Part shown: positions 22,763-42,128 of the stretch, in pieces
Position numbering within the stretch: position 1 is the stretch's first letter
How the letters are laid out: the number at the start of each line of letters is the position of its first letter
From: a virus
Reading direction: 5' to 3' (one strand)
Length of the DNA: 63,351 nucleotides
Virus record (IMG/VR): IMGVR_UViG_3300045988_110668
Program-made: the position numbers and the translations under genes
The notes under the pieces: model-generated
The model's input: the letters and a program-made list of their open reading frames with translations, nothing else
Database searches by the model: none
Told to the model about the DNA's origin: nothing

Positions 22763-23755
22763 TTATTTCTTTATTACAACTGCCATAGTACTAACAGCCG
22801 TTCCGCTTTCCTTGAACTCACCGGCTCCGATTTCAAAAACTTCTCCATGAACTTTTTCCAACCATTCCCGGAACTCAACACATTTCTTTTCAGACGCGAA
22901 TTTCCAATGCCGGCTGGTTATAACCGCAAGAATTCCACCTTCTTCCAAGCGTTCATACATAAGTCTTACATGGTCAATATCCTGATTACCGGAAAATGGA
23001 GGATTAGCAATAATCTTAGTGTAATGCCCTACACTATCTTTCGTAAAATCTTCATCAAGCAATATTACGTTATCAAGTGTATGAAGGAACTCCCTGTTTT
23101 CCGGCATCAGTTCATAGCATTCAACTGTTACTGACGGGCACGACCGATGAATCGCTTTTATCAGAGCACCACGTCCGGCACTTGGTTCAAGTACGGTATC
23201 TTTTTCGTGAATTCCACCGGCAAGCATTACCAACCAGTCTGCAATATCAGCAGGTGTTTCAAAGAACTGAAAATCTTTTTGCAAATCGCATCGCTTACCT
23301 TCTTTCAAGATGGAGAACACACGTTCCGGATTAAAAGGAAATGTGAATCCCTGTATCTTACCTCCCTGCCATGAGCCGCCAGCTTCTTCTATCCATTTTT
23401 TAGCTTCAGCATAGGATTTCTTATTGAATTGTACTTTCGGAAGTTTAAGAACACTATCCTCAAGAGTACAATGCTTCAGTATCTCTTCCACATTCCATTT
23501 CTTACCTTCATCAGCCTGGCTCTTCCTTTCATCAACCGGAGCGCCCGGCGCTAACAGTGAGGATATTTTCGTAATAACCATATTACTCGCATCCATAAAA
23601 GTATTAACACAGAAAAGCGCTTCCATAAGAAATTCAGTATCAACATATCCGGCAGCGTCATAAACATCTATGCCTTCAGTCATATCCGACAATTCATTGA
23701 GCTGGGTTACACTACCACGTAACGTTTTTATTAAAGTCTCTTTGTTGTTCATCAT
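22763..23755 (-). CDS. N6-adenine DNA methyltransferase (gamma-class order)
   Basis: VLEPSAGRGALI (motif I) then IIANPPFSG (motif IV), with a ~170-aa N-terminal extension. Confidence 0.75.
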   Translation of the reverse strand: MMNNKETLIKTLRGSVTQLNELSDMTEGIDVYDAAGYVDTEFLMEALFCVNTFMDASNMVITKISSLLAPGAPVDERKSQADEGKKWNVEEILKHCTLEDSVLKLPKVQFNKKSYAEAKKWIEEAGGSWQGGKIQGFTFPFNPERVFSILKEGKRCDLQKDFQFFETPADIADWLVMLAGGIHEKDTVLEPSAGRGALIKAIHRSCPSVTVECYELMPENREFLHTLDNVILLDEDFTKDSVGHYTKIIANPPFSGNQDIDHVRLMYERLEEGGILAVITSRHWKFASEKKCVEFREWLEKVHGEVFEIGAGEFKESGTAVSTMAVVIKK

Positions 23756-24818
23756 AACTTTTTTGTAAATAAATTCTTGTTGTATCTACACTACCATGAC
23801 CAAGAAGGTCTGCTAATTGAATTACATCTTTGGTTTTCTTCAGGAACATTTTAGCAAAGAAGTGCCGGAAGGCGTGAGCGTGCATTTTTTTCGAATCGAT
23901 ACCACAATGTTTACCCCATGCTTTTAGGTGTTGGGAAAAACCTCTCTGAGTCAACGGTCCGAATCTCCCAACAGCAAGAGTACCGGACTTGCCTGTCTCC
24001 TTTATATAGTCCTTCACTTCCCTCTGCAATTGCTTCTGGAAAAAGAAACGCCGATACTTGTTCCCTTTCCCTTTCAAAACAACTTCGCCGATCGCTATAT
24101 CCTCCCACGTGAATTGCTGAAACTCCGAGAGACGAGCTCCTGTAGTACCCAATACCTTAATAAAGAAATAGTAATCCTTGTTGTTTTTTGTTTTCAGATA
24201 CTCTAGTAACCGATTGTATTCATCTTCGGTAGGAACATTAGAAATATCTAGCCTACGTTTCATTTTAGGTCTCTTCAATTCTATCGGCTTTTTCATCCAT
24301 TTAGAGAACTTTTCCAAGGCAGTAATCCTTAAACGGATGGTTTGCGGAGACAATGTTTTTTCTTCTAATGTACGTATAAACCTCTTACAGTTTTCCATAT
24401 TTATATTGTTAGCGTATGCAAAATATTGCTTCAAGGATGTGTGATAAATATCCACTGTATGCGAAGAGTAATCATTGTTATCGGTTAGCCATATTATAAA
24501 ATCATTTAACAACTTTCTGTTCTTTTCCGAAATGGTGTCAAGTCTTTCTAAAGCTTTTACTTTCTTTTCTTGACGGTTATATCCGATTTTAAGGTGAAAC
24601 AATAAATCACAAATAGCTTCACTCATCAATGGATAACGTGCCCCAATATTGGCATTTTCACGCTTATAAGCCAGATAGCCACGACGATTGATTTCTTCGG
24701 CACTTTCAAGAAAATCAGTTACATATTTGATATATTTCCCAATAGTATCATAAGTTCTTCTTGTTGTATACAAGTAGCTAATATAATCAGTTAAGATTTT
24801 CTGCCTTTCATTATTCAT
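23712..24818 (-). CDS. Tyrosine recombinase (Xer/integrase family), second copy in this genome
   Basis: C-terminal HAHAFRHFFAKMFL...LLGHGSVDTTRIYL catalytic signature. Confidence 0.8.
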   Translation of the reverse strand: MNNERQKILTDYISYLYTTRRTYDTIGKYIKYVTDFLESAEEINRRGYLAYKRENANIGARYPLMSEAICDLLFHLKIGYNRQEKKVKALERLDTISEKNRKLLNDFIIWLTDNNDYSSHTVDIYHTSLKQYFAYANNINMENCKRFIRTLEEKTLSPQTIRLRITALEKFSKWMKKPIELKRPKMKRRLDISNVPTEDEYNRLLEYLKTKNNKDYYFFIKVLGTTGARLSEFQQFTWEDIAIGEVVLKGKGNKYRRFFFQKQLQREVKDYIKETGKSGTLAVGRFGPLTQRGFSQHLKAWGKHCGIDSKKMHAHAFRHFFAKMFLKKTKDVIQLADLLGHGSVDTTRIYLQKSYDEQQRDFNKNVTW

Positions 24819-29133: not shown

Positions 29134-29904
29134 TTATGCGGCATCTTTCCCTAGAAACTTATTCACAAAATAGATTTGTCCTTTTCCCGTAACCTTCGTT
29201 GTAGTAGTAACTAACACCGTCCCATCTGGCTTGGTTATTGTTGTTTGTTTTATTTCAAACAATCCTAATTCCATAGATTTTTGTGTAGGTTGATTATAAT
29301 ATTGTCCTTTCTGACAGAGATAGCCATTATCACGCAGCCATGAGAACAAGCGATTTTGACCGATATTCACACCGTTCTGCTGTAGTATCTTCGCTAATTC
29401 AGCGATCAAACAAGAACGTTGGGAAGTCGAGACCGCATCGGCAAAAAGAACTTTAGGAGCGTCCTGTTGAATTTTACTTTCTACTTCGATAAGGCGCTGC
29501 TCTTTTCGTTTCAGTGTTTCTTGTGCTACAATCAACGCACGTGCCATAATTTCTTCGGGAGTATCATTTTGCTGGGTTGTAATATAGCCGCCATGTTTGC
29601 GGATAGATGGAAGAACTTCGCCACATACCCAATCTTGGAAAGGTTCGGCTTGTGGTTTATCCGAACGCATGATTACTTTATATAGATTCTTTTCTGTTAC
29701 AAAATTCATCTGCTGTGCTCTACCCATTGAATCTATGACCCCAAACCGAATGGGGGCATCCTTTATTCTTGATTGTACGGCGTCTACTCTTAACTCAAGC
29801 ACTTTACACACATCTGCCAAGCAGAATAATGGTTCTTCATTCTCATTCATCGCAATTCTTACCTCTCCGAATTGCTCATTCTGAAAGATTTTAATTTTAT
29901 TCAT
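29134..29904 (-). CDS. Bro-N plus KilAC-type antirepressor
   Basis: IFQNEQFGEVRIAMNENEEPLFCLADVCKVLEL (Bro-N) with a C-terminal LFADAVSTSQRSCLIAELAKIL..GYL (KilAC-like) region. Confidence 0.75.
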   Translation of the reverse strand: MNKIKIFQNEQFGEVRIAMNENEEPLFCLADVCKVLELRVDAVQSRIKDAPIRFGVIDSMGRAQQMNFVTEKNLYKVIMRSDKPQAEPFQDWVCGEVLPSIRKHGGYITTQQNDTPEEIMARALIVAQETLKRKEQRLIEVESKIQQDAPKVLFADAVSTSQRSCLIAELAKILQQNGVNIGQNRLFSWLRDNGYLCQKGQYYNQPTQKSMELGLFEIKQTTITKPDGTVLVTTTTKVTGKGQIYFVNKFLGKDAA

Positions 29905-30853: not shown

Positions 30854-31003
30854 TCAACCTTTCTCCTTACTCCTTTGGAGTTTCTTTCTAGTTTTACGAA
30901 TCATATCTTCATCTCTCAAATTATATCCCCTAATGAGGATTTCTGACGTTTTCAAGCACCGGACTATCGTCTGGTATTCTTGTTTGGTGATTGTTATTTT
31001 CAT
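30854..31003 (-). CDS. Small hypothetical protein (49 aa)
   Basis: My translation: MKITITKQEYQTIVRCLKTSEILIRGYNLRDEDMIRKTRKKLQRSKEKG. Its stop abuts the VRR-NUC ATG, and its ATG lies 2 nt after the tRNA-like element. Confidence 0.4.
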   Translation of the reverse strand: MKITITKQEYQTIVRCLKTSEILIRGYNLRDEDMIRKTRKKLQRSKEKG

Positions 31004-31004
31004 G

Positions 31005-31193
31005 TGGGACAAGCAGGAGTCGAACCTGCACAAGTATCGTCTGCTTTCTCGTTTTCGTCCGTAGATTGGTTATCCTACGATTTTTAAACTACTCAACCAG
31101 TTACTAACAGCACCGGTCTTGATGACATCCATTCTTATGTACACTTAGAATTTCCGTTCATTTAGTCTTAGCGCCCTATGACCATTTTGTCCC
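31005..31193 (-). ncRNA. tRNA-like RNA (acceptor stem plus canonical T-arm, ~157-nt non-tRNA interior)
   Basis: 5' GGGACAA pairs perfectly with 3' TTGTCCC. T-arm is GCAGG-TTCGACT-CCTGC. A -7-like box TAGCTTTG lies at 31248-31241. Confidence 0.5.
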
Positions 31194-34391: not shown

Positions 34392-34619
34392 AACTATATA
34401 TATTATTAAAGTGGTTAATCGAAAATAAAGCGTCTATTTTCACAAACCGACGCTTTCGAAAATTTTAATATACAAAAAAGATTGTTCCTAGATACCGAAC
34501 CAACGGACACTAGGATAGTATAGAACATGTAAAACTCAAATACAGGGACTCGCACCCTACGACATCCTGGGGTGTCGGCATTGGGTTAATTAATAAATGA
34601 ATGGAATATAATTTTATAG

Positions 34620-35221: not shown

Positions 35222-35293
35222 TGGACGTAACTGGATTCGAACCAGTAATAAACCAACTGGGCAGGTAATCTCATGCACTGCCACTTTACGCCC
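35222..35293 (-). ncRNA. tRNA-like RNA, 72 nt (acceptor plus T-arm, no cloverleaf)
   Basis: 5' GGGCGTA pairs with 3' TACGTCC (one G-U). T-arm is ACTGG-TTCGAAT-CCAGT. Internal hairpin GGCAG-N13-CTGCC. Confidence 0.5.
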
Positions 35294-35382: not shown

Positions 35383-35544
35383 TCACTTTTCTCTCTTTAG
35401 TCTCTTTTGGTGCTTTTCCATGTATATGGAACATAATGCAAATACAGCAAACGAAAGCCAAAATACAATATTCATTTCGTTTGCAAGCAATACTGTTAAT
35501 GCAAACGATATTGCCCAAATTCCTAATAGTGGAGTACGTTTCAT
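35383..35544 (-). CDS. Small two-helix membrane peptide (53 aa)
   Basis: My translation: MKRTPLLGIWAISFALTVLLANEMNIVFWLSFAVFALCSIYMEKHQKRLKREK. Confidence 0.4.
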   Translation of the reverse strand: MKRTPLLGIWAISFALTVLLANEMNIVFWLSFAVFALCSIYMEKHQKRLKREK

Positions 35545-35569
35545 AATATTAATTATTTGATTATTATTG

Positions 35570-35651
35570 TGGACGGAACCGGAGTCGAACCGGTCTCACG
35601 GAATATTGGTGCACCTCACCGCAGTTTCAGCCATGATATACACATCCGCCC
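35570..35651 (-). ncRNA. tRNA-like RNA, 82 nt (acceptor plus T-arm, no cloverleaf)
   Basis: 5' GGGCGGA pairs with 3' TCCGTCC (one G-U). T-arm is ACCGG-TTCGACT-CCGGT. Contains an internal palindrome GGTGCACC. Confidence 0.5.
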
Positions 35652-36078
35652 GATTAATTAAAAAAGTGCACTATCTTCACAGACCGTACACTATACAACA
35701 CACAAACACAAAATAAAACACTACATAAAAGTGCCCTACCCGATTCTCACTACCGGATGTCAGTTTCAAACTGTCAGTAGGGCTATATTACAATCAGCGT
35801 ACGGACGCCTATTCCCGTTTTCTTACTGATAAAGACGATGTTTTTCAGACTGATTTTTTCGATATATTACTTACTCACGTTGCTTCCTTCCGCTCATATC
35901 ATCGCTGGTTGGCTATTACGCTATACTCCGCCTCGGCTATAATGCTTATTAGCGCAGGCTACTTTAACGTGCCCTGAACACGGCTTCATTTTTGAGGGTT
36001 AAGCCTCCCATCCCGAATTAGGATTCATCGGTTTACCGTTATGCTCTGAAAGCGTTTCGCTCGCTTCTTCCGTAGGTT
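35652..36078 (-). ncRNA. ORF-free, relatively GC-rich segment with many local helices (candidate structured ncRNA; the alternative is an origin region)
   Basis: No ORF of 60 aa or more in any frame from 35194 to 36078. Helices include GCCCTAC/GTAGGGC (35733-39 / 35777-83) enclosing CAGTT/AACTG. Confidence 0.3.
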
Positions 36079-36264
36079 CTAACCTAACAGAGATTCGTAA
36101 AATTTTATACTTTCCAAAAAGGAATCTATAATTTCACTTTTAGTTTTATTACTTTTCGCCAATTTCCTAACAGTGGATTCATCATAAGTTTCTAAGTCTT
36201 TCACATATTTACGAAGAAAGACTAATTGATTATTTATATATTCTATATCCATAATTACCTCCAA
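36079..36264 (-). CDS. Hypothetical protein (61 aa)
   Basis: Track ORF. Confidence 0.5.
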   Translation of the reverse strand: MEVIMDIEYINNQLVFLRKYVKDLETYDESTVRKLAKSNKTKSEIIDSFLESIKFYESLLG

Positions 36265-36533
36265 GAACTATCACGATTTATATAATCAGCATGATTCCCG
36301 GTAAAGAACGCTTTCAATACATTACCTTCTTTTTTAGGAAACTCCGGCTTATATGACTTCTTTTCCTCTTCAATCTCTCTATATTCTTTTTGTTGTCTCT
36401 TTGCCAAGAACCAATCCTGTTTCAATGCTTCACTCAAAGAAATACGACGATACGCTTTCAAGATGTGAGCGTGTTTCATTATCTCACTGTTATTGAAATT
36501 TCCGGTTTCTGTCAAAAATGTAAATGCGTTCAT
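36255..36533 (-). CDS. Hypothetical early protein (92 aa)
   Basis: Track ORF; the first gene leftward of the operator region. Confidence 0.55.
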   Translation of the reverse strand: MNAFTFLTETGNFNNSEIMKHAHILKAYRRISLSEALKQDWFLAKRQQKEYREIEEEKKSYKPEFPKKEGNVLKAFFTGNHADYINRDSSWR

Positions 36534-36610
36534 CTTGATCTCTTTTTAGTTATTACTATTGTTTCTATCAAATTTTATCCTTTTATTTGTATTGGATTGA
36601 TTTGGTATTG

Positions 36611-36666
36611 CAAATATACTATAAGAAATTATACTATCAAAATATATACTATAAATAATTATAGTA
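36611..36666. promoter_or_regulatory. Operator array: TATACTATMA x3 at 15-bp spacing plus an inverted TTATAGTA, overlapping a -7 box
   Basis: Repeats at 36615-24, 36630-39 and 36645-54. The inverted copy is at 36659-66. CAAATATA lies at 36611-18. Confidence 0.6.
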
Positions 36667-36715
36667 AAAACATTATTTAACTATTAGAGCGGATTATACA
36701 TTATTATATAAAATC

Positions 36716-37039
36716 ATGGAATTGAAAGAATTTATAAAAGAGACAATATCAAGCATCGCAGATGCAGTATATGAACTTAATGAGGAGAAATCAGAAAATG
36801 GTCTTATCGTTAATCCATCAAAAATGAAATGGAAAGGAGAAACCAATGATTTATACGAAGATGGAAGAATTGTTAAAAATATAGAGTTCAACCTTAGCGT
36901 ACAAGCATCAGATAAAAATGGAACGGGAATAGGGCTTAAAATTAATATTGTAAATGCTGGAATTGGTAATGAAAAGACCAACTCCACCATAAGTACAATT
37001 AAGTTTTCTATTCCGGTTGCTTTCCCTCCACAGAAGTAA
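36716..37039 (+). CDS. trypco2-like small protein (107 aa)
   Basis: N-terminal helix LKEFIKETISSIADAV, then IEFNLSVQASDKNGTGIGLKINIVNAGIGNEKTNSTISTIKFSIPV. This pattern is recalled from trypsin-co-occurring domain 2 proteins. Confidence 0.5.
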   Translation: MELKEFIKETISSIADAVYELNEEKSENGLIVNPSKMKWKGETNDLYEDGRIVKNIEFNLSVQASDKNGTGIGLKINIVNAGIGNEKTNSTISTIKFSIPVAFPPQK

Positions 37040-37199
37040 CCCATTTATAGAAAACTTGAGCTAGTTCCAAAGGGGTGCTAATCCATTTTCCAGAGCAGCA
37101 TTGAGCTTCATAAACATAAACTGCGTATTTTAAACAATTCATTCTAATTTGTTCATCAGAATTACATGAATCGGGAGATAGGTTTAATTTTTCGTCCAT
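37008..37199 (-). CDS. Hypothetical protein (63 aa)
   Basis: Track ORF; its 3' end overlaps the convergent 36716..37039 by 32 nt. Confidence 0.45.
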   Translation of the reverse strand: MDEKLNLSPDSCNSDEQIRMNCLKYAVYVYEAQCCSGKWISTPLELAQVFYKWVTSVEGKQPE

Positions 37200-37344
37200 A
37201 GTTTTTGGGGCTAACTGTTATTAATTGGAAATAAAAATATCCGCAATAGGTTGCAGCTACTACGGATACCATATATTAAACCTCTTGTGAGGGAAGTTTA
37301 ACCACTTTGTCTCTGTAACATCTGCAACTTGTTACGATGCAAAG

Positions 37345-37365
37345 ATACTATAATAATTTATAGTA
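37345..37365. promoter_or_regulatory. Palindromic operator ATACTATAA-TAA-TTTATAGTA in the divergent region
   Basis: Same half-site as the 36611-36666 array. It lies next to the box TATCTTTG (reverse complement of 37340-37347). Confidence 0.55.
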
Positions 37366-37387
37366 CAAACAAACAGTTGATTTATTT

Positions 37388-37804
37388 ATGGAAAGAGATG
37401 AACGTTTTTTAGAAGTGATTAATGAACTTCAAATTACAGCTTATACGCTTGAAAAAGAAAATGGTATAAAAAATGCGCAAGCCAAAGTGTCTCATTACAA
37501 AAAAGGAGTAACCAAAAGTATATCTTCAGATATAATAGTTGGGCTTTGTGAGGCATATCCGCAAGTTAACGCTAATTACATTCTCACCGGCAACGGCCCC
37601 ATGTTCAAGGAAGAACAAGCCACTCAAAACATTAACGAACATTCACAAGTAATACAAATAGACAACACAAAACAGGTAAGACACATGCTGGATGTTATAA
37701 ATGAACAACAAAAAACGATAGAAAACCTAACAGAATATATCAAAAAGATAGAAGGAAACCCGAAAAGAAGTATAGAAAACAAGAAGGATGGTATGACCGC
37801 ATAA
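37388..37804 (+). CDS. CI-like repressor (HTH)
   Basis: ..FLEVINELQITAYTLEKENGIKNAQAKVSHYKKG.. is an XRE-type HTH. It is the only long + strand gene in the lysogeny region and is divergent from the early genes. Confidence 0.6.
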   Translation: MERDERFLEVINELQITAYTLEKENGIKNAQAKVSHYKKGVTKSISSDIIVGLCEAYPQVNANYILTGNGPMFKEEQATQNINEHSQVIQIDNTKQVRHMLDVINEQQKTIENLTEYIKKIEGNPKRSIENKKDGMTA

Positions 37805-37853
37805 ACAAATATAACATATCCTTTGTTCTCAAATGACCTAAATATCTAAAAAT

Positions 37854-38051
37854 ATGGATGACCCTTTGTTTAGAGAGTTTGAGAATGTACTATCTGTTAT
37901 GAAAAGGCAGAATGAAGTGATTAAGGAAGTTGTATTAAAAGAACCATTAGAAAAGATGAAATTGATTGTCTGTTCCGGGAAAAGAACGGATGATAGTTTT
38001 AACCTTAAATCTTTTAATAAAGACATACTTAAGAAAATGAGACAAATTTAA
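37854..38051 (+). CDS. Hypothetical protein (65 aa) co-oriented with the repressor
   Basis: Track ORF. Confidence 0.45.
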   Translation: MDDPLFREFENVLSVMKRQNEVIKEVVLKEPLEKMKLIVCSGKRTDDSFNLKSFNKDILKKMRQI

Positions 38052-38068
38052 TTGTCTATTTGCAAAGG

Positions 38069-38110
38069 AAGGCGTGACCTATCAAAAAGATCACGCCTTG
38101 TTTGTATATT
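38069..38110 (+). terminator. Terminator of the repressor operon
   Basis: AAGGCGTGA-N13-TCACGCCTT followed by GTTTGTATATT. Confidence 0.6.
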
Positions 38111-38133
38111 ATAAGCTATCTCATTTTAATAAA

Positions 38134-38235
38134 TTACAGTCTTTTTATCCATTTCTTCCCAGACGGAGTTTCGGTATAAATCCAAAAGGAAATGGTTATT
38201 ACCGTTATAAGTCCAAATCCATATAATGCTATCAT
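38134..38235 (-). CDS. Small hydrophobic peptide (33 aa), tandem paralog B
   Basis: MIALYGFGLITVITISFWIYTETPSGKKWIKRL. Confidence 0.4.
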   Translation of the reverse strand: MIALYGFGLITVITISFWIYTETPSGKKWIKRL

Positions 38236-38236
38236 A

Positions 38237-38341
38237 TCAAAGATCTTTCAGCCATTTCTTGCCACTTTTGGTATGTGACCAAATAACTAGCGCAGCCCCT
38301 ATGACACTAGTCATTAAGAAAATCATTGTTAATGCATCCAT
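38237..38341 (-). CDS. Small hydrophobic peptide (34 aa), tandem paralog A
   Basis: MDALTMIFLMTSVIGAALVIWSHTKSGKKWLKDL. Confidence 0.4.
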   Translation of the reverse strand: MDALTMIFLMTSVIGAALVIWSHTKSGKKWLKDL

Positions 38342-38348
38342 ATTACTT

Positions 38349-38591
38349 TCATTTTAAAATTCTATTAGCAAAATTGGCAAAAATGTAAGTAGAAAAAATT
38401 CCCAATACAATTGTAGTCCAATTTATTTCATTTGAAGCATTAGTAAACAAGGGAGTTATACCACCCAACACAAGGGCGGCAAACACAAGTTTAGATAAAT
38501 CGAAGAAGTAACTAGCAAGCTTTTCCCGCCTAGTCTTATCTTTGTCCTTAACCTCCTTCTTTGCTTCTTGCATTTTGCTAAAATTGCCCAT
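38349..38591 (-). CDS. Two-TM small membrane protein (80 aa)
   Basis: Track ORF. Confidence 0.55.
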   Translation of the reverse strand: MGNFSKMQEAKKEVKDKDKTRREKLASYFFDLSKLVFAALVLGGITPLFTNASNEINWTTIVLGIFSTYIFANFANRILK

Positions 38592-38646
38592 ATTCTAACT
38601 ATTGACAACGCAAATGTACAAAAATAGTTTGATTATTCAAATTAAA

Positions 38647-39981
38647 TTAATACACGTTATTATTAAACACATAATCAATAACTTTGGAATTAGCCTCATT
38701 TATAGAACTAAAATCCTTCTTGATATAAATTTCAGTTACCCTCATGGATTCGTCAACATGATTTAAGGCGGAATGGACTACATACTTGTCTATTTTAAGA
38801 TCATTAGCCGCAATAGTAGCCCATGAATGGCGGGCAGCATAAAATTCCAAATCTTCTATGATGTCACCGTTCTTTTTTGACTTATTTATATCGTTAATGC
38901 TCTTCTCAATCTCCTTAAGGCCCTTATTGATAGCTTTATTAAAGTTCTTATAATCGGCATACATTTGATAGAATCTGAACACTCTTTTCCCTGTATGATC
39001 TTTGTATTTCTCCAGCAGATCGGAAATAAACGGGGGTACATCTACATGAATTTCCGCGTTATCTCTACGTCTAGTTCTTGTTTTCTCTCTGAAATACTGA
39101 ATCGTATTATTGCTTATCTTATCACAGCTATATAAGTCAGCAGAATTCATTCCTATCAGACAGAAAGACAAGATAAATACATCTTTTGCAAGATTATATC
39201 TGCAATTTTGCTCTACATTTTTCCTGGCGTTATGCCGCATTATGTAGGGTAAATCATAAATTGCTTTTATTGTTTGCGGTGATAATGCCCTTTTTCTTGT
39301 AGTCTCTTCTTTGGGAACCTTAAACTTCATGAATGGAGACCAAGGTATTAGTATTACTCCTTTCTCTTCATCGTTATATTTTAATTTAGCCTCCTTATGC
39401 AAATGCCGAATACATGCGGTATAGTTAGATAACATTCTATTGGTTGTGATACGCTTCCCTTTTTTTATAGCTTCTAAATTGGATTTCTCCTTTTTTTCTA
39501 TCAGAAACTTCGAATAATTAACCAGCATTGAATAGGTTATTTCAGAAATAGATATAATATCTCTTTTCATAAAGTTGATTAATGACTGAAGCATGCCTTT
39601 GTAATTAGAAGCAGTTCCATTTTTACCTTGTTTTTCAAGATTGTTTATATAGTCCTTTGCAAAAGATACAAAATCAATATCTTTCTTTTTGTCTTCTTCC
39701 TTTTGGTTCAAATAATCGACCAATTCATCTATTGACATATTATCTATAGTAAGAGCGATCTTGCTACATTTATTACGATAATAATTGATAATCTCATTGC
39801 ACTGATCTATCTTTTCCTGATTTTTTATCTTGAAATTCTTGACCGTCAAATCTTCTTGGTTTACATATATAGAGGTTGGCAACCTTCGAACAACCCTGTT
39901 ATGAGTTATCCGAATTTTTACATTCCAGGTCTTATCTTTTCTTTTTTGGTGCTTTTGCACTTCTGCTTTAAATGTAGCCAT
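38647..39981 (-). CDS. int: Tyrosine integrase (Bacteroidetes phage/CTn type)
   Basis: Start at MATFKAEVQKHQKRKDKTWNVKIRITHNR. C-terminal ARHSWATIAAN...HSALNH...TEIYI. Confidence 0.85.
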   Translation of the reverse strand: MATFKAEVQKHQKRKDKTWNVKIRITHNRVVRRLPTSIYVNQEDLTVKNFKIKNQEKIDQCNEIINYYRNKCSKIALTIDNMSIDELVDYLNQKEEDKKKDIDFVSFAKDYINNLEKQGKNGTASNYKGMLQSLINFMKRDIISISEITYSMLVNYSKFLIEKKEKSNLEAIKKGKRITTNRMLSNYTACIRHLHKEAKLKYNDEEKGVILIPWSPFMKFKVPKEETTRKRALSPQTIKAIYDLPYIMRHNARKNVEQNCRYNLAKDVFILSFCLIGMNSADLYSCDKISNNTIQYFREKTRTRRRDNAEIHVDVPPFISDLLEKYKDHTGKRVFRFYQMYADYKNFNKAINKGLKEIEKSINDINKSKKNGDIIEDLEFYAARHSWATIAANDLKIDKYVVHSALNHVDESMRVTEIYIKKDFSSINEANSKVIDYVFNNNVY

Positions 39982-40015
39982 AATTTCATATGTATTTTTT
40001 ATGCTTTTCTTTTTC

Positions 40016-40033
40016 GAGCAACAATAGAGCAAC
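40016..40033 (+). repeat. 18-bp direct repeat GAGCAACAATAGAGCAAC (putative integrase arm site, copy 1)
   Basis: Identical to 40282-40299. Confidence 0.85.
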
Positions 40034-40170
40034 AATTTCAAGCAAAAGTAGCGTTTTAAATCAAAAGTAACAAAATAAAAGGGCTATAAATCATTTTAGA
40101 CTTATAACCCTATTTATTTATAATCATCTGAAAATCAACACAAACAACTAATAATCAGACCTTATTTTTG

Positions 40171-40220
40171 TGGAGCGGTAAGCGAGACTCGAACTCGTGA
40201 CCCTTAGCTTGGGAAGCTAA
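40171..40220 (-). other. 3' half of a tRNA-Gly(CCC)-like gene: putative attP core
   Basis: Minus strand: TTAGC-TTCCCAA-GCTAA (anticodon arm, CCC), GGGTC, T-arm ACGAG-TTCGAGT-CTCGC, TTACCGC-T-CCA. There is no 5' half upstream. Confidence 0.65.
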
Positions 40221-40281
40221 CCAATAAAACAATATAATAATATGTACAACAAATACTTACAACAACACATTACAACAAAAA

Positions 40282-40299
40282 GAGCAACAATAGAGCAAC
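40282..40299 (+). repeat. 18-bp direct repeat (putative arm site, copy 2)
   Basis: Identical to 40016-40033. Confidence 0.85.
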
Positions 40300-40396
40300 T
40301 TTATCCAAATTAGAAACTTTCCTCTTTTTATTCAGGTAAATATAAGAAATATTTTATAGAATAGAAACAAAGTCGGATATAATCAAAAAAGGCAGC

Positions 40397-40648
40397 TCAT
40401 TCGGCTGCTTTTCCTATCTTCTCCTTAAACAATCTCAACTGATCTATACTAGGATGAAAAGTAGGATTCTCCCAGTTCCTAGAGATAACCGAAATCATTG
40501 AATCCAGAAACTTCCCGCAGTCGAGAATCTTCGCACATTTATCCAATTGGAACTCTCCGGAAGGATATTTCTTGCTGTCAAGAACATCCTTAGCCCATGT
40601 CAGTAACTCATTCACCGAGTCGTGGTTGTATTTATTTTCCTCCGCCAT
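40397..40648 (-). CDS. Hypothetical protein (83 aa)
   Basis: Start moved to MAEENKYNHDS because a TACCTTTG -7 box lies inside the longer track ORF. Confidence 0.5.
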   Translation of the reverse strand: MAEENKYNHDSVNELLTWAKDVLDSKKYPSGEFQLDKCAKILDCGKFLDSMISVISRNWENPTFHPSIDQLRLFKEKIGKAAE

Positions 40649-40786
40649 AATAACTTTGTTTTCGGCAAAGGTATAAAAAATCCCGGCATATCTAATACAC
40701 CGGGAGGATTCCATTTTAAAGAGGCAGTTATAAATGGAAGGAGCTATTCACCAAACATATAATCCTCAAAGTACAAGAGATTCCTT

Positions 40787-41233
40787 TTATTGAGGATCAT
40801 GTACGCCATATATTTTGGCTGGGAGAGTAAAAGAAGGGAGTCCTGTGCGGACAATCATATTTTGAATATACTCTCTAAAATAAGGCCAGATAAATACTGA
40901 TAAACTTATCTCTTTAAAAACATCAAAGAAATCTTTTGTTATTGTGACCTCTTTTAATTTACTATATCTGACTTTAAACTCTCCAGATATAGTAAATAGT
41001 TTCTCCGCATTTTCTTGCTCGCCAATTATACCTTCAAGCTTAAAGGAAGCTATAAAACAAGCATTACTTTCAGATTCAGAAAACGAGTATTTATCTTTAA
41101 AATTTAAATTGATAGAGCCTCCTTCTGATACACACTCAAACACCTTAACATTTCCATCCGAAAGAAATATATTATCTAATTTTATGGAAGTTAATATTGA
41201 AGAATATTCTTCTGGGGTAATTTTATTTTTCAT
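40787..41233 (-). CDS. SecB-like chaperone
   Basis: C-terminal IWPYFREYIQNMIVRTGLPSFTLP parallels E. coli SecB [26 protein letters not shown]. Confidence 0.7.
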   Translation of the reverse strand: MKNKITPEEYSSILTSIKLDNIFLSDGNVKVFECVSEGGSINLNFKDKYSFSESESNACFIASFKLEGIIGEQENAEKLFTISGEFKVRYSKLKEVTITKDFFDVFKEISLSVFIWPYFREYIQNMIVRTGLPSFTLPAKIYGVHDPQ

Positions 41234-41235
41234 AT

Positions 41236-41784
41236 TTATATAACTGATTTAAATTCGGTATGTTCATAAAAACGAGATTGAGTAGCATTACAAAACAAGG
41301 TATTTGTTTTGTAATTAATTGAATTAAGGTTCCTTAAAATCATATCATTTTGGGCAGTAATCTTTTCATCAATCTCATCTATTTTTCTTTCACATTTCAA
41401 TGAAACATCATGTTGTCCAATTCCGTATGCTAATAATTGATTAACATAAGAATTGAGGGAAACACCATTCATTTTAGCTTGTTGTATCAACGAAGAATGA
41501 ACCCATGAGGATGTTCTAACTGAAAATGTACCACTTGAATTTTGCTCCTCATTTACAACTTCAGGGATAGGCTCTCCTTTTTCATACAACATTTCTATAA
41601 AAGCATCTTTTTCTTCAATAAAACTATTTAAAGCAGATACTTTATCTTCTCCTATCCCATGACAAGCATTTAAACCAAGCTCATTGCAGTATGCAACATA
41701 CCACTTTTCGCCATCAAGTTCTTCTTTTTTAATAATAACATTGTACTCCAATGATTTGTAGTACTGTAAATCTTTTCGTGACAT
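41236..41784 (-). CDS. hicB: HicB-family antitoxin with a ~60-aa C-terminal extension
   Basis: YNVIIKKEELDGEKWYVAYCNELGLNACHGIGEDKVSALNSF..GEPIPE, then SGTFSVRTSSWVHSSLIQQAKMNGVSLNSYVNQLL (RHH-like), then extra residues. Confidence 0.75.
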   Translation of the reverse strand: MSRKDLQYYKSLEYNVIIKKEELDGEKWYVAYCNELGLNACHGIGEDKVSALNSFIEEKDAFIEMLYEKGEPIPEVVNEEQNSSGTFSVRTSSWVHSSLIQQAKMNGVSLNSYVNQLLAYGIGQHDVSLKCERKIDEIDEKITAQNDMILRNLNSINYKTNTLFCNATQSRFYEHTEFKSVI

Positions 41785-41804
41785 AATTGTATTGGGTTAG
41801 TGAG

Positions 41805-42128
41805 TTATTGCTTTTTCTTTATCCTTATTATTTCAATTAACACTGGATAAAGATACTGTTTAAAATTAGTCCTCTTTATTAGGACTTCATTGCCACCTTT
41901 ATGGACAACGTGTACTCCAAAATATTTGCCAGGTGTTGGGGCTAAAGGGTGATAAAATCTTTCCATAGAACCACGTGGGCTATCTTGTAATTTTGATCCA
42001 AGAAATTCCGCAATCTTAACCACATGATTAAAAGGCAGATCCACCACAGGCGCACTATAAAGATTTTCTAGTTCTTTTTCCGCATCCTCAATAGTGGTAT
42101 CATTCGTTATTTTAAACTTAAATTTCAT
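41805..42128 (-). CDS. hicA: HicA-like toxin (divergent; GSM instead of GSH)
   Basis: ..PRGSMERFYHP..GVHVVHKGGNEVLIKRTNFKQYL... Position is immediately upstream of hicB. Confidence 0.55.
   Translation of the reverse strand: MKFKFKITNDTTIEDAEKELENLYSAPVVDLPFNHVVKIAEFLGSKLQDSPRGSMERFYHPLAPTPGKYFGVHVVHKGGNEVLIKRTNFKQYLYPVLIEIIRIKKKQ

Follow-up and report, generated by a model that had tools for sequence, protein, structure and literature searches.

A 63,351-nucleotide (nt) viral DNA, IMG/VR record IMGVR_UViG_3300045988_110668 (the whole stretch analyzed, hereafter the window), represents a temperate, siphovirus-like phage, as a phage genome or a prophage, and nearly all of its genes lie on the minus strand. 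On that strand, with the integrase/regulator region on one side and the recombination module on the other, lies an 82-nt element, E82, in which the outer helices of a tRNA enclose an altered interior (Table 1). Its letters from 35651 to 35570 read GGGCGGAUGUGUAUAUCAUGGCUGAAACUGCGGUGAGGUGCACCAAUAUUCCGUGAGACCGGUUCGACUCCGGUUCCGUCCA. An earlier note on this DNA had described E82 as a tRNA-like element with an acceptor pairing of GGGCGGA with TCCGTCC, a T-arm ACCGG-TTCGACT-CCGGT, a discriminator A, a 50-nt interior, a self-complementary octamer, and a 53-codon open reading frame (ORF) for a membrane peptide downstream. All of these features were verified in the sequence. The 7-bp acceptor helix comprises six Watson-Crick pairs and a G3:U70 wobble, the ORF starts 25 nt past the discriminator, and the C that directly follows A73 is kept in all contexts of E82.

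Table 1. Features of the E82 region and of the two further tRNA-like cassettes in the window
Feature	Position	Strand	Details
E82, 82-nt tRNA-like RNA gene	35570..35651	minus	G1 at 35651, discriminator A73 at 35570
Acceptor stem, 5' strand GGGCGGA	35645..35651	minus	Partner at 35571-35577
Acceptor stem, 3' strand TCCGTCC	35571..35577	minus	Followed by A73 (35570) and C (35569)
T-arm ACCGG-UUCGACU-CCGGU	35578..35594	minus	5-bp stem, 7-nt loop with T-Psi-C-R-A consensus
U8 equivalent	35644	minus	T, invariant in 23/23 relatives
D-arm-like hairpin	35624..35641	minus	Invariant GG of loop at 35632-35631
Anticodon-arm equivalent	35597..35623	minus	UGCGG (35623-35619) and CCGUG (35601-35597) around a 17-nt loop (35618-35602)
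Self-complementary octamer GGTGCACC	35608..35615	minus	Within the 17-nt loop; kept by most variants
E82 leader	35652..35692	minus	Hairpin 35692-35665, then U-run and AAUUAAUC up to G1
25-nt AU-rich trailer	35545..35569	minus	Joins E82 to the next start codon
53-codon ORF	35383..35544	minus	Two hydrophobic stretches; neighbor only
E72, second tRNA-like cassette	35222..35293	minus	72 nt, G3:U70, A73; Rfam tRNA 25 bits (cutoff 29)
E189, third tRNA-like cassette	31005..31193	minus	G3:C70, large insert; C, then ATG at 31003
DUF2693-FD RNA (Rfam RF02926)	35733..35783	minus	56.5 bits (gathering 44.5); ~80 nt upstream of E82

Chance expectation and covariation of E82

We scanned the window with strict criteria (acceptor stem paired at 7 of 7 positions, T stem at 5 of 5, and a loop matching TTCRANN). 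Three matches were obtained, E82, E72, and E189, all on the minus, gene-sense strand. The mean in 200 first-order Markov resamples was 0.02, and four of the resamples gave any match at all. To place E82 among its relatives, 80 IMG/VR loci were gathered via the neighboring DUF6948 protein, and a pattern built on the E82 core then retrieved more than 100 further viral loci and 12 genome loci. The genome loci with E82 come from Bacteroides xylanisolvens XB1A, B. timonensis, B. congonensis, B. bouchesdurhonensis, B. muris, and B. acidifaciens and from Parabacteroides and Tannerellaceae metagenome-assembled genomes. Twenty-three distinct E82 variants of 80 to 83 nt from viral loci made up the covariation set; a wider pattern scan gained just one extra variant.

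Over these 23 variants, the acceptor and T helices were 98.9% paired (acceptor stem alone, 98.1%; T stem, 100%). Compensatory double changes were found at 5 of the 12 pairs, three of the seven in the acceptor stem (4:69, 5:68, and 7:66) and two of the five in the T stem (49:65 and 51:63). When the register was slid by 1 to 3 columns, pairing fell to 25 to 52%. The covariation lends strong support to the label "tRNA-like element." G3:U70, A73, U8, the T-loop UUCGA, and the GG of the D-like loop were invariant in this set, as was G2:C71. Since G:U pairs become A:C mismatches on the opposite strand, the constraint acts on RNA of minus polarity. In all, about 27 E82 variants with a mean column identity of 92% occur in at least five unrelated flank contexts and in several Bacteroides species, and E82 is far better conserved than its flanks across species. 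E82 is real, far beyond chance.

These results bear on whether E82 could be a decayed tRNA pseudogene or a DNA-level site (an attachment-site remnant or protein-binding palindrome) with no RNA function. Such a sequence would be expected to be rejected, as E82 is, by ARAGORN and by the Rfam tRNA model, and E82 does contain a perfect 8-bp palindrome. However, both helices are kept by compensatory changes, their G:U pairs would be mismatched on the other strand, and conservation exceeds that of the flanks across species. For an attachment-site remnant in particular, three such elements in one genome are difficult to accommodate, and a tRNA-Arg(CCG) gene that is a possible integration site lies elsewhere in related loci. 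We therefore regard this explanation as very improbable.

Searches of databases and literature

ARAGORN, run with default settings, with introns, and with the tmRNA (transfer-messenger RNA) search, called no tRNA or tmRNA anywhere in the window. With relaxed thresholds it reported E82 as "tRNA-???" only, with a 2-nt anticodon and shifted ends, and again no tmRNA. In Rfam searches at gathering thresholds and at E values up to 10, including a 111-nt mini-search, E82 had no tRNA match (RF00005 cutoff, 29 bits); against the tmRNA models it scored 10.7 and 8.2 bits (cutoffs, 70 and 47), which are echoes of the T-arm. The sole above-threshold Rfam match in the window was the DUF2693-FD RNA, whose model spans 49 positions, and E82 falls outside the match. 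Neither the region nor E82 had a BLAST match in GenBank phages or PLSDB plasmids, and a search with a neighboring protein returned distant phage relatives only. No description of E82-type elements was found in the literature, with subscription-only papers beyond the reach of the search; in the literature searched, DUF2693-FD appears as a list mention only. A tRNA-with-intron reading of E82 was rejected: bacterial group I introns are far longer than the insert, and ARAGORN run with introns was negative.

Interior fold of E82

The earlier note had held that U8, the D-stem, and a 5-bp/7-nt anticodon arm were all absent from the interior. The first absence is refuted, and the second does not hold as stated. 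A U8 equivalent is present and invariant, and a GG-bearing D-like hairpin follows it. In 80-nt relatives this hairpin, GUUUC-GUGGCU-GAAAC, has a perfect 5-bp stem and the same invariant GG, whereas in the window copy the stem is interrupted by an extra AU. Across the variants the D-like stem is 86% paired, without covariation. The claim about the anticodon arm holds in part: the canonical 5-bp/7-nt form is indeed missing, but a stem equivalent exists, with UGCGG and CCGUG closing a conserved 17-nt loop, UGAGGUGCACCAAUAUU. This stem of 4 to 5 bp is 99% paired, and its changes are one-sided only (G:U to A:U and U:G to U:A). The variable region is 2 nt. Because the stem closes 17 nt in place of 7, E82 cannot decode.

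A sister family of 82 nt, beginning GGGTGGT, occupies the E82 slot in other phages and aligns along the whole length of E82. Its fold is a clean cloverleaf in which the D arm is canonical and the 5-bp stem, UCGUG/CACGA, has a compensatory variant, UUGUG/CACAA. In the same place as the E82 loop, its 16-nt loop carries the palindrome UUGCGCAA followed by CCAAUUAU. Cross-family covariation between E82 and this family gave no readout, as the MAFFT alignment loses the structural register. Comparison with the relatives and with the sister family supports modeling the E82 interior as a cloverleaf that is degenerate and whose anticodon loop is enlarged.

The stem columns of E82 vary more than its 17-nt loop, which points to selection acting on the loop sequence. 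The octamer within the loop is self-complementary in 23 of 25 variants when G:U pairs are counted; a G-to-A change breaks it in loci L022 and L090. Its candidate roles are dimerization, an internal mini-hairpin, and protein binding. Copies of TGTGAAGAT elsewhere in the window (19137 and 61324) were dismissed as lying inside coding sequence, and the counts of GTGCAC gave no support for an enriched restriction-type site (4 observed versus 7.3 expected in the window).

Families of tRNA look-alikes

The same strict scan applied to all loci revealed about 25 sequence families of tRNA-shaped elements, ranging from 63 to 189 nt. All retain the acceptor stem and T-arm, and usually the D arm as well. 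In place of the anticodon arm they have a tetraloop on a 5-bp stem (families of 67, 69, and 71 nt), a loop of 13 to 17 nt, or an insert of 40 to 100 nt. ARAGORN calls many of the family members "tRNA-???" with anticodons of 2 or 4 nt. The Rfam tRNA model accepts several of the families but never E82; neighbors of E82 in the arrays of relatives pass. Across 111 distinct elements, pair 3:70 was G:U in 42 and A:U in 37, while G:U at any other acceptor position occurred in at most 14. The discriminator was A in 82 of the 111.

Both of the other cassettes in the window belong to this set of designs. In E72, a 5-bp hairpin carries a loop of 13 nt, and the linker holds a D-loop-like GUUGGUU. At the E189 slot, relatives carry a 159-nt element and other variants. 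A 134-nt array member (L204, 5375-5508, minus strand) consists of a 71-nt GGTGATG scaffold with a 63-nt insert at the anticodon position, and equivalents were seen in L081, L197, L200, L201, and L207. The insert has T-arm-like and D-arm-like hairpins closed by GUGGUG/CACCAC, so that one tRNA-like fold is nested in another.

Two further sequence features recur. In these phages, the discriminator of each tRNA or tRNA-like gene is followed by a C (C74) and then usually by A or T, whatever sequence lies downstream, which would fit a CCA end that is encoded in part or a determinant of 3' processing. The motif ACCAAU recurs on the 3' side of enlarged loops in E82, the sister 82-nt family, a 156-nt family, and the E189 hairpin loop (31059-31068). 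As a post hoc observation, it is complementary to the AAUUGGU/GUUGGU sequences that other cassettes and class II tRNAs have in their D-loops.

Leaders, trailers, and cassette exchange

Inside the leader hairpin of E82, a GNRA tetraloop caps the inner stem (GUCU-GUGA-AGAU), and the E189 leader has this inner stem too. Hairpins likewise precede E72 (35320-35299) and E189 (31227-31201). Of the distinct 45-mers upstream of such elements, 76% folded at −10 kcal/mol or below, compared with 8.8% of random and 3.9% of downstream sequences; the hairpin most often ended 4 nt before G1. In relatives, the E82 leader precedes different tRNA-like cassettes. Among phages whose DUF6948 proteins are at least 96% identical, the slot holds E82, the 82-nt GGGTGGT/GGATGGT family, or Leu-like scaffolds of 105 to 146 nt. 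The DUF2693-FD RNA precedes this slot in relatives whichever tRNA-like cassette comes next, and Pfam DUF2693 had no match among ten scanned ORFs downstream of the motif.

The trailer, CAAUAAUAAUCAAAUAAUUAAUCUU-AUG, is common to E82 and other look-alikes and leads into three different ORFs. For this reason, and because a terminator follows E82 in its commonest context, a specific link between E82 and the membrane-peptide ORF is not upheld. Six different elements occupy the E189 slot, each placed precisely between ...CGAACAT and C-ATGAAAATAAC. Across unrelated flanks, the conserved unit is exactly G1 to A73, plus C74. As the replacement boundaries fall exactly there, the exchanged unit corresponds to the mature tRNA-like RNA, G1 to A73. 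E82 is part of an extensive cassette system, which the earlier note had not noticed.

A hairpin of cassette-leader design (inner 4-bp stem and GUGA tetraloop), AAAGCGUC-GGUUUGUGAAAAUA-GACGCUUU followed by a U-run, stands at 34427-34456 on the minus strand with no tRNA-like element after it; an attenuator or a slot without its cassette are candidate readings. A noncoding element of about 110 nt is shared between the window (34480-34590, minus strand) and a spacer of the tRNA-like array in the B. xylanisolvens XB1A prophage (L204, 4230-4330, minus strand). Its two copies show compensatory hairpin differences, an invariant UAUUUGAGUUUUA..UGUUCUAUAC core, and a terminator-like part, and Rfam gave no match.

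This arrangement of leaders and trailers is what would be expected under the main rival explanation, pure cis processing, in which RNase P and RNase Z would use the tRNA-like fold only to split the early transcript, so that the upstream RNA gains a 3' hairpin and the downstream ORF a short leader of defined length, and the excised RNA would have no function of its own. The layout of hairpin, 4 nt, tRNA-like element, AU-rich trailer, and ATG is recurrent; swaps are bounded exactly by mature tRNA ends; and the parts common to all families are only those that RNase P and RNase Z need. An ATG stands directly after A73-C74 of E189 and after the E82 copy in L116, and 3' processing of E189 would leave a leaderless or near-leaderless mRNA (31001-31005). 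A precedent exists in MALAT1/mascRNA (PMC4919922).

Arrays and genomic setting

The commonest context of E82, with most of the IMG/VR matches, is that of the B. xylanisolvens XB1A prophage, which is of another type than the window. Here, an array of five tRNA-like genes lies between a helix-turn-helix regulator and a Rad52-like/PD-(D/E)XK/SSB module. E82 is the last of the five, the last four measuring 71, 98, 67, and 83 nt. The spacers among these four are 90 to 230 nt long and hold no plausible ORF, and a 10-bp terminator follows 96 nt past E82. In other phages, E82 sits beside genuine tRNA-Ser(GCU) or tRNA-Phe(GAA) genes, whose leaders are of the type found before E82.

Such arrays are difficult to reconcile with a fold that serves only to cut the transcript, as four tRNA-like genes follow one another with no plausible ORF between them and with a terminator after the last. 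The 17-nt loop is also conserved above the stems, and G3:U70 persists though neighboring acceptor pairs turn over. Together, these three observations argue that the excised RNA would itself matter. We consider processing in cis alone a serious but distinctly less probable explanation; transcript punctuation is nevertheless expected as at least a side effect of E82.

The remainder of the window is consistent in layout with a temperate phage. Structural genes include those for the large terminase, portal, major head, and tail proteins. Downstream of E82, the leftward operon encodes a YqaJ-type exonuclease, a VRR-NUC protein, an antirepressor of the KilAC/Bro type (29134-29904), replication proteins, and methylases. 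No RNA-handling enzymes were found among the neighboring proteins of E82. In lambda-like phages, early accessory and host-takeover functions sit between the integrase/regulator and recombination regions. The 36000-42000 region is low in GC (0.32 versus ~0.38) and contains an integrase (38647-40041), a HicB-like protein (41236-41784), and DUF6965. The only sizeable plus-strand ORF (37388-37804) has no Pfam match. A second tyrosine recombinase (23712-24818) adjoins two DNA methylases and a PAPS-reductase/QueC-like gene. At the edge of related loci (L040, 222-295; L062, 220-293) stands a canonical tRNA-Arg(CCG) gene, which may be the prophage integration site.

Discussion

On the basis of sequence comparison, we read E82 as a conserved gene for a tRNA-scaffolded, nondecoding small RNA that would be excised by tRNA enzymes, would probably accept alanine, and would act in trans through its loop; we give this reading as a whole an even chance of being correct. 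According to this proposal, E82 would be transcribed in the early leftward transcript, downstream of the DUF2693-FD RNA and the GNRA-capped leader hairpin, and would fold into a tRNA-like L shape. Host RNase P would cut at G1, and the tRNA 3'-end machinery would cut at A73/C74, after which the CCA end would be completed. Alanyl-tRNA synthetase (AlaRS) could then charge the RNA, which is made probable by the presence of G3:U70, A73, and G2:C71. The tRNA body would serve as a scaffold for processing and stability, and the enlarged, conserved loop would be the working part, binding a host or phage partner as a decoy or regulator. As a by-product, excision would cut the early transcript, leaving upstream RNA that ends in a protective hairpin and a next ORF that has a short AU-rich leader.

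Several observations weigh against this proposal. All steps after folding are inferred. Three interior models fit the E82 alignment about equally (94.6 to 96%), and single-sequence fold z-scores are weak. Conservation of the 17-nt loop could in part reflect recent horizontal spread. In the window, E82 stands 25 nt before an ORF without a terminator, a context that fits a purely cis role equally well. No antisense target of the loop was found within the window beyond chance: the best duplex had −17.8 kcal/mol, and shuffled loops ranged from −13.9 to −22.6. Three further points concern alanine identity: pair 4:69 of E82 is C4:G69, not G4:C69; the distant genome-derived members L202 and L208 carry G3:C70; and some sister-family copies have A3:U70. 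The G3:U70 wobble is thus not absolutely required and, given the G3:C70 and A3:U70 members together with C4:G69, alanine charging cannot be essential to the family.

The alanine features could also be given more weight than we give them, with E82 as an AlaRS-charged translation mimic, similar to the tRNA domain of tmRNA or acting as a sink, that competes for AlaRS, EF-Tu, or SmpB or enters stalled ribosomes and would thereby disturb ribosome rescue or translation in the host. AlaRS charges minihelices bearing G3:U70, a property that would suit such a mimic. G3:U70, A73, and G2:C71 are invariant in the 23 Bacteroides-phage variants, and G:U is enriched at 3:70 across families. The acceptor stem carries AlaRS identity, and the bacterial identity set comprises A73, G2-C71, G3.U70, G4-C69, and G20 (PMC9976931). 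Of this set, E82 has the first three; its 4:69 pair is C:G or U:A, and G20 is not assignable. In contrast, members with G3:C70 and A3:U70 exist, many sister families lack G3:U70, and no tmRNA-like message domain was detected (ARAGORN was negative at relaxed thresholds, and Rfam tmRNA scores were about 10 bits against cutoffs of 47 to 70). A translation mimic is accordingly unlikely.

The small phage RNAs C4 of P1/P7 and CI of P4 offer a different comparison. They are cut by RNase P from early-operon transcripts, vary between related phages, pair antisense with sites in their own operon, and are not cloverleaf mimics. If E82 were an immunity RNA of this type, its loop would pair with the early transcript, control genes downstream, for instance the antirepressor, and set immunity specificity. 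The position of E82 in the early operon, its hypervariability between otherwise near-identical phages, and the downstream KilAC/Bro gene would fit, and the C4 precursor is listed as a known RNase P substrate in the references of PMC4919922. However, E82 lacks an operon target in the window beyond the level of shuffled loops, and the identical E82 sequence occurs in phages with unrelated neighboring sequence. We consider an antisense immunity function improbable.

tRNA mimics are a known kind of RNA, including the tRNA-like domain of tmRNA, mascRNA, P1 C4 RNA, and viral tRNA-like RNAs. E82 resembles tRNA, and tRNA-Ala in particular, in its 7-bp acceptor with G3:U70, G2:C71, and A73, its U8, its UUCGA T-loop, and the GG of its D-like loop, and in some relatives it sits among real phage tRNA genes with the same leader design. 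It differs in its 17-nt loop in place of 7, its degenerate D stem, and its 2-nt variable region, and it has no listed Rfam tRNA match and is not called by default ARAGORN. With tmRNA it shares the acceptor and T-arm module, alanine identity features (G3:U70 and A73), and the lack of an anticodon, but it is only 82 nt long and has neither a message-like domain nor pseudoknots, in keeping with its tmRNA model scores of 8 to 11 bits.

The phage T4 stable RNAs "species 1 and 2" lie in a tRNA cluster, and the vtRNAs/TMERs of the gammaherpesvirus MHV68 are, like them, virus-encoded, nondecoding tRNA-like RNAs, produced together with tRNAs or in the manner of tRNAs. In MHV68 the tRNA-like part is an RNA polymerase III promoter and an RNase Z handle for microRNAs. 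In mascRNA/menRNA, a tRNA look-alike lies within the MALAT1/MEN-beta transcript, and RNase P and RNase Z are expected to produce the upstream RNA's 3' end as well as a small tRNA-like RNA (PMC4919922). E82 would similarly be embedded in a longer transcript with a stabilizing hairpin just upstream (35692-35665), a layout from which its cleavage would be expected. Unlike mascRNA, it is bacterial and phage borne, occurs in arrays and swappable cassettes, and has alanine identity features. As Rfam, GenBank phages, PLSDB, and the literature searched yielded no counterpart of E82, the E82 family, the anticodon-less design over about 25 families, and the organization into cassettes and arrays in Bacteroides phages appear to be undescribed.

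The usual reading of phage tRNA genes is that they aid codon usage or replace host tRNAs that immune nucleases have cleaved. The phages studied here carry a whole set of tRNA-shaped RNAs that have lost the anticodon while keeping tRNA-processing features and often alanine-charging features as well, and these look-alikes turn over like accessory or counterdefense cassettes in abundant Bacteroides prophages. More tentatively, we suggest that temperate phages of Bacteroides could carry an arsenal of interchangeable, nondecoding tRNA mimics, many with alanine identity, in which a tetraloop, a palindromic loop of 16 to 17 nt, or a payload of 40 to 100 nt stands for the anticodon arm; these would be expressed early, from cassettes and arrays led by hairpins, act in trans as decoys or regulators, and diversify by cassette exchange. 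Targets would include, for example, tRNA-directed host immunity and tRNA-binding host factors, in an arms race. E82 is the most widespread member, with the caveat that many loci were retrieved with a pattern derived from it. Standard tRNA finders and Rfam miss such elements whether they act in trans or in cis, and B. xylanisolvens XB1A (NC_021017.1), which is in culture and completely sequenced, has the array, so that the proposal is directly testable. If trans-acting, the look-alikes would form a class of tRNA-scaffolded small RNAs new among phages; if mere punctuation, they would parallel, in bacteria, the tRNA punctuation of mitochondrial transcripts and 3'-end formation of the mascRNA type.

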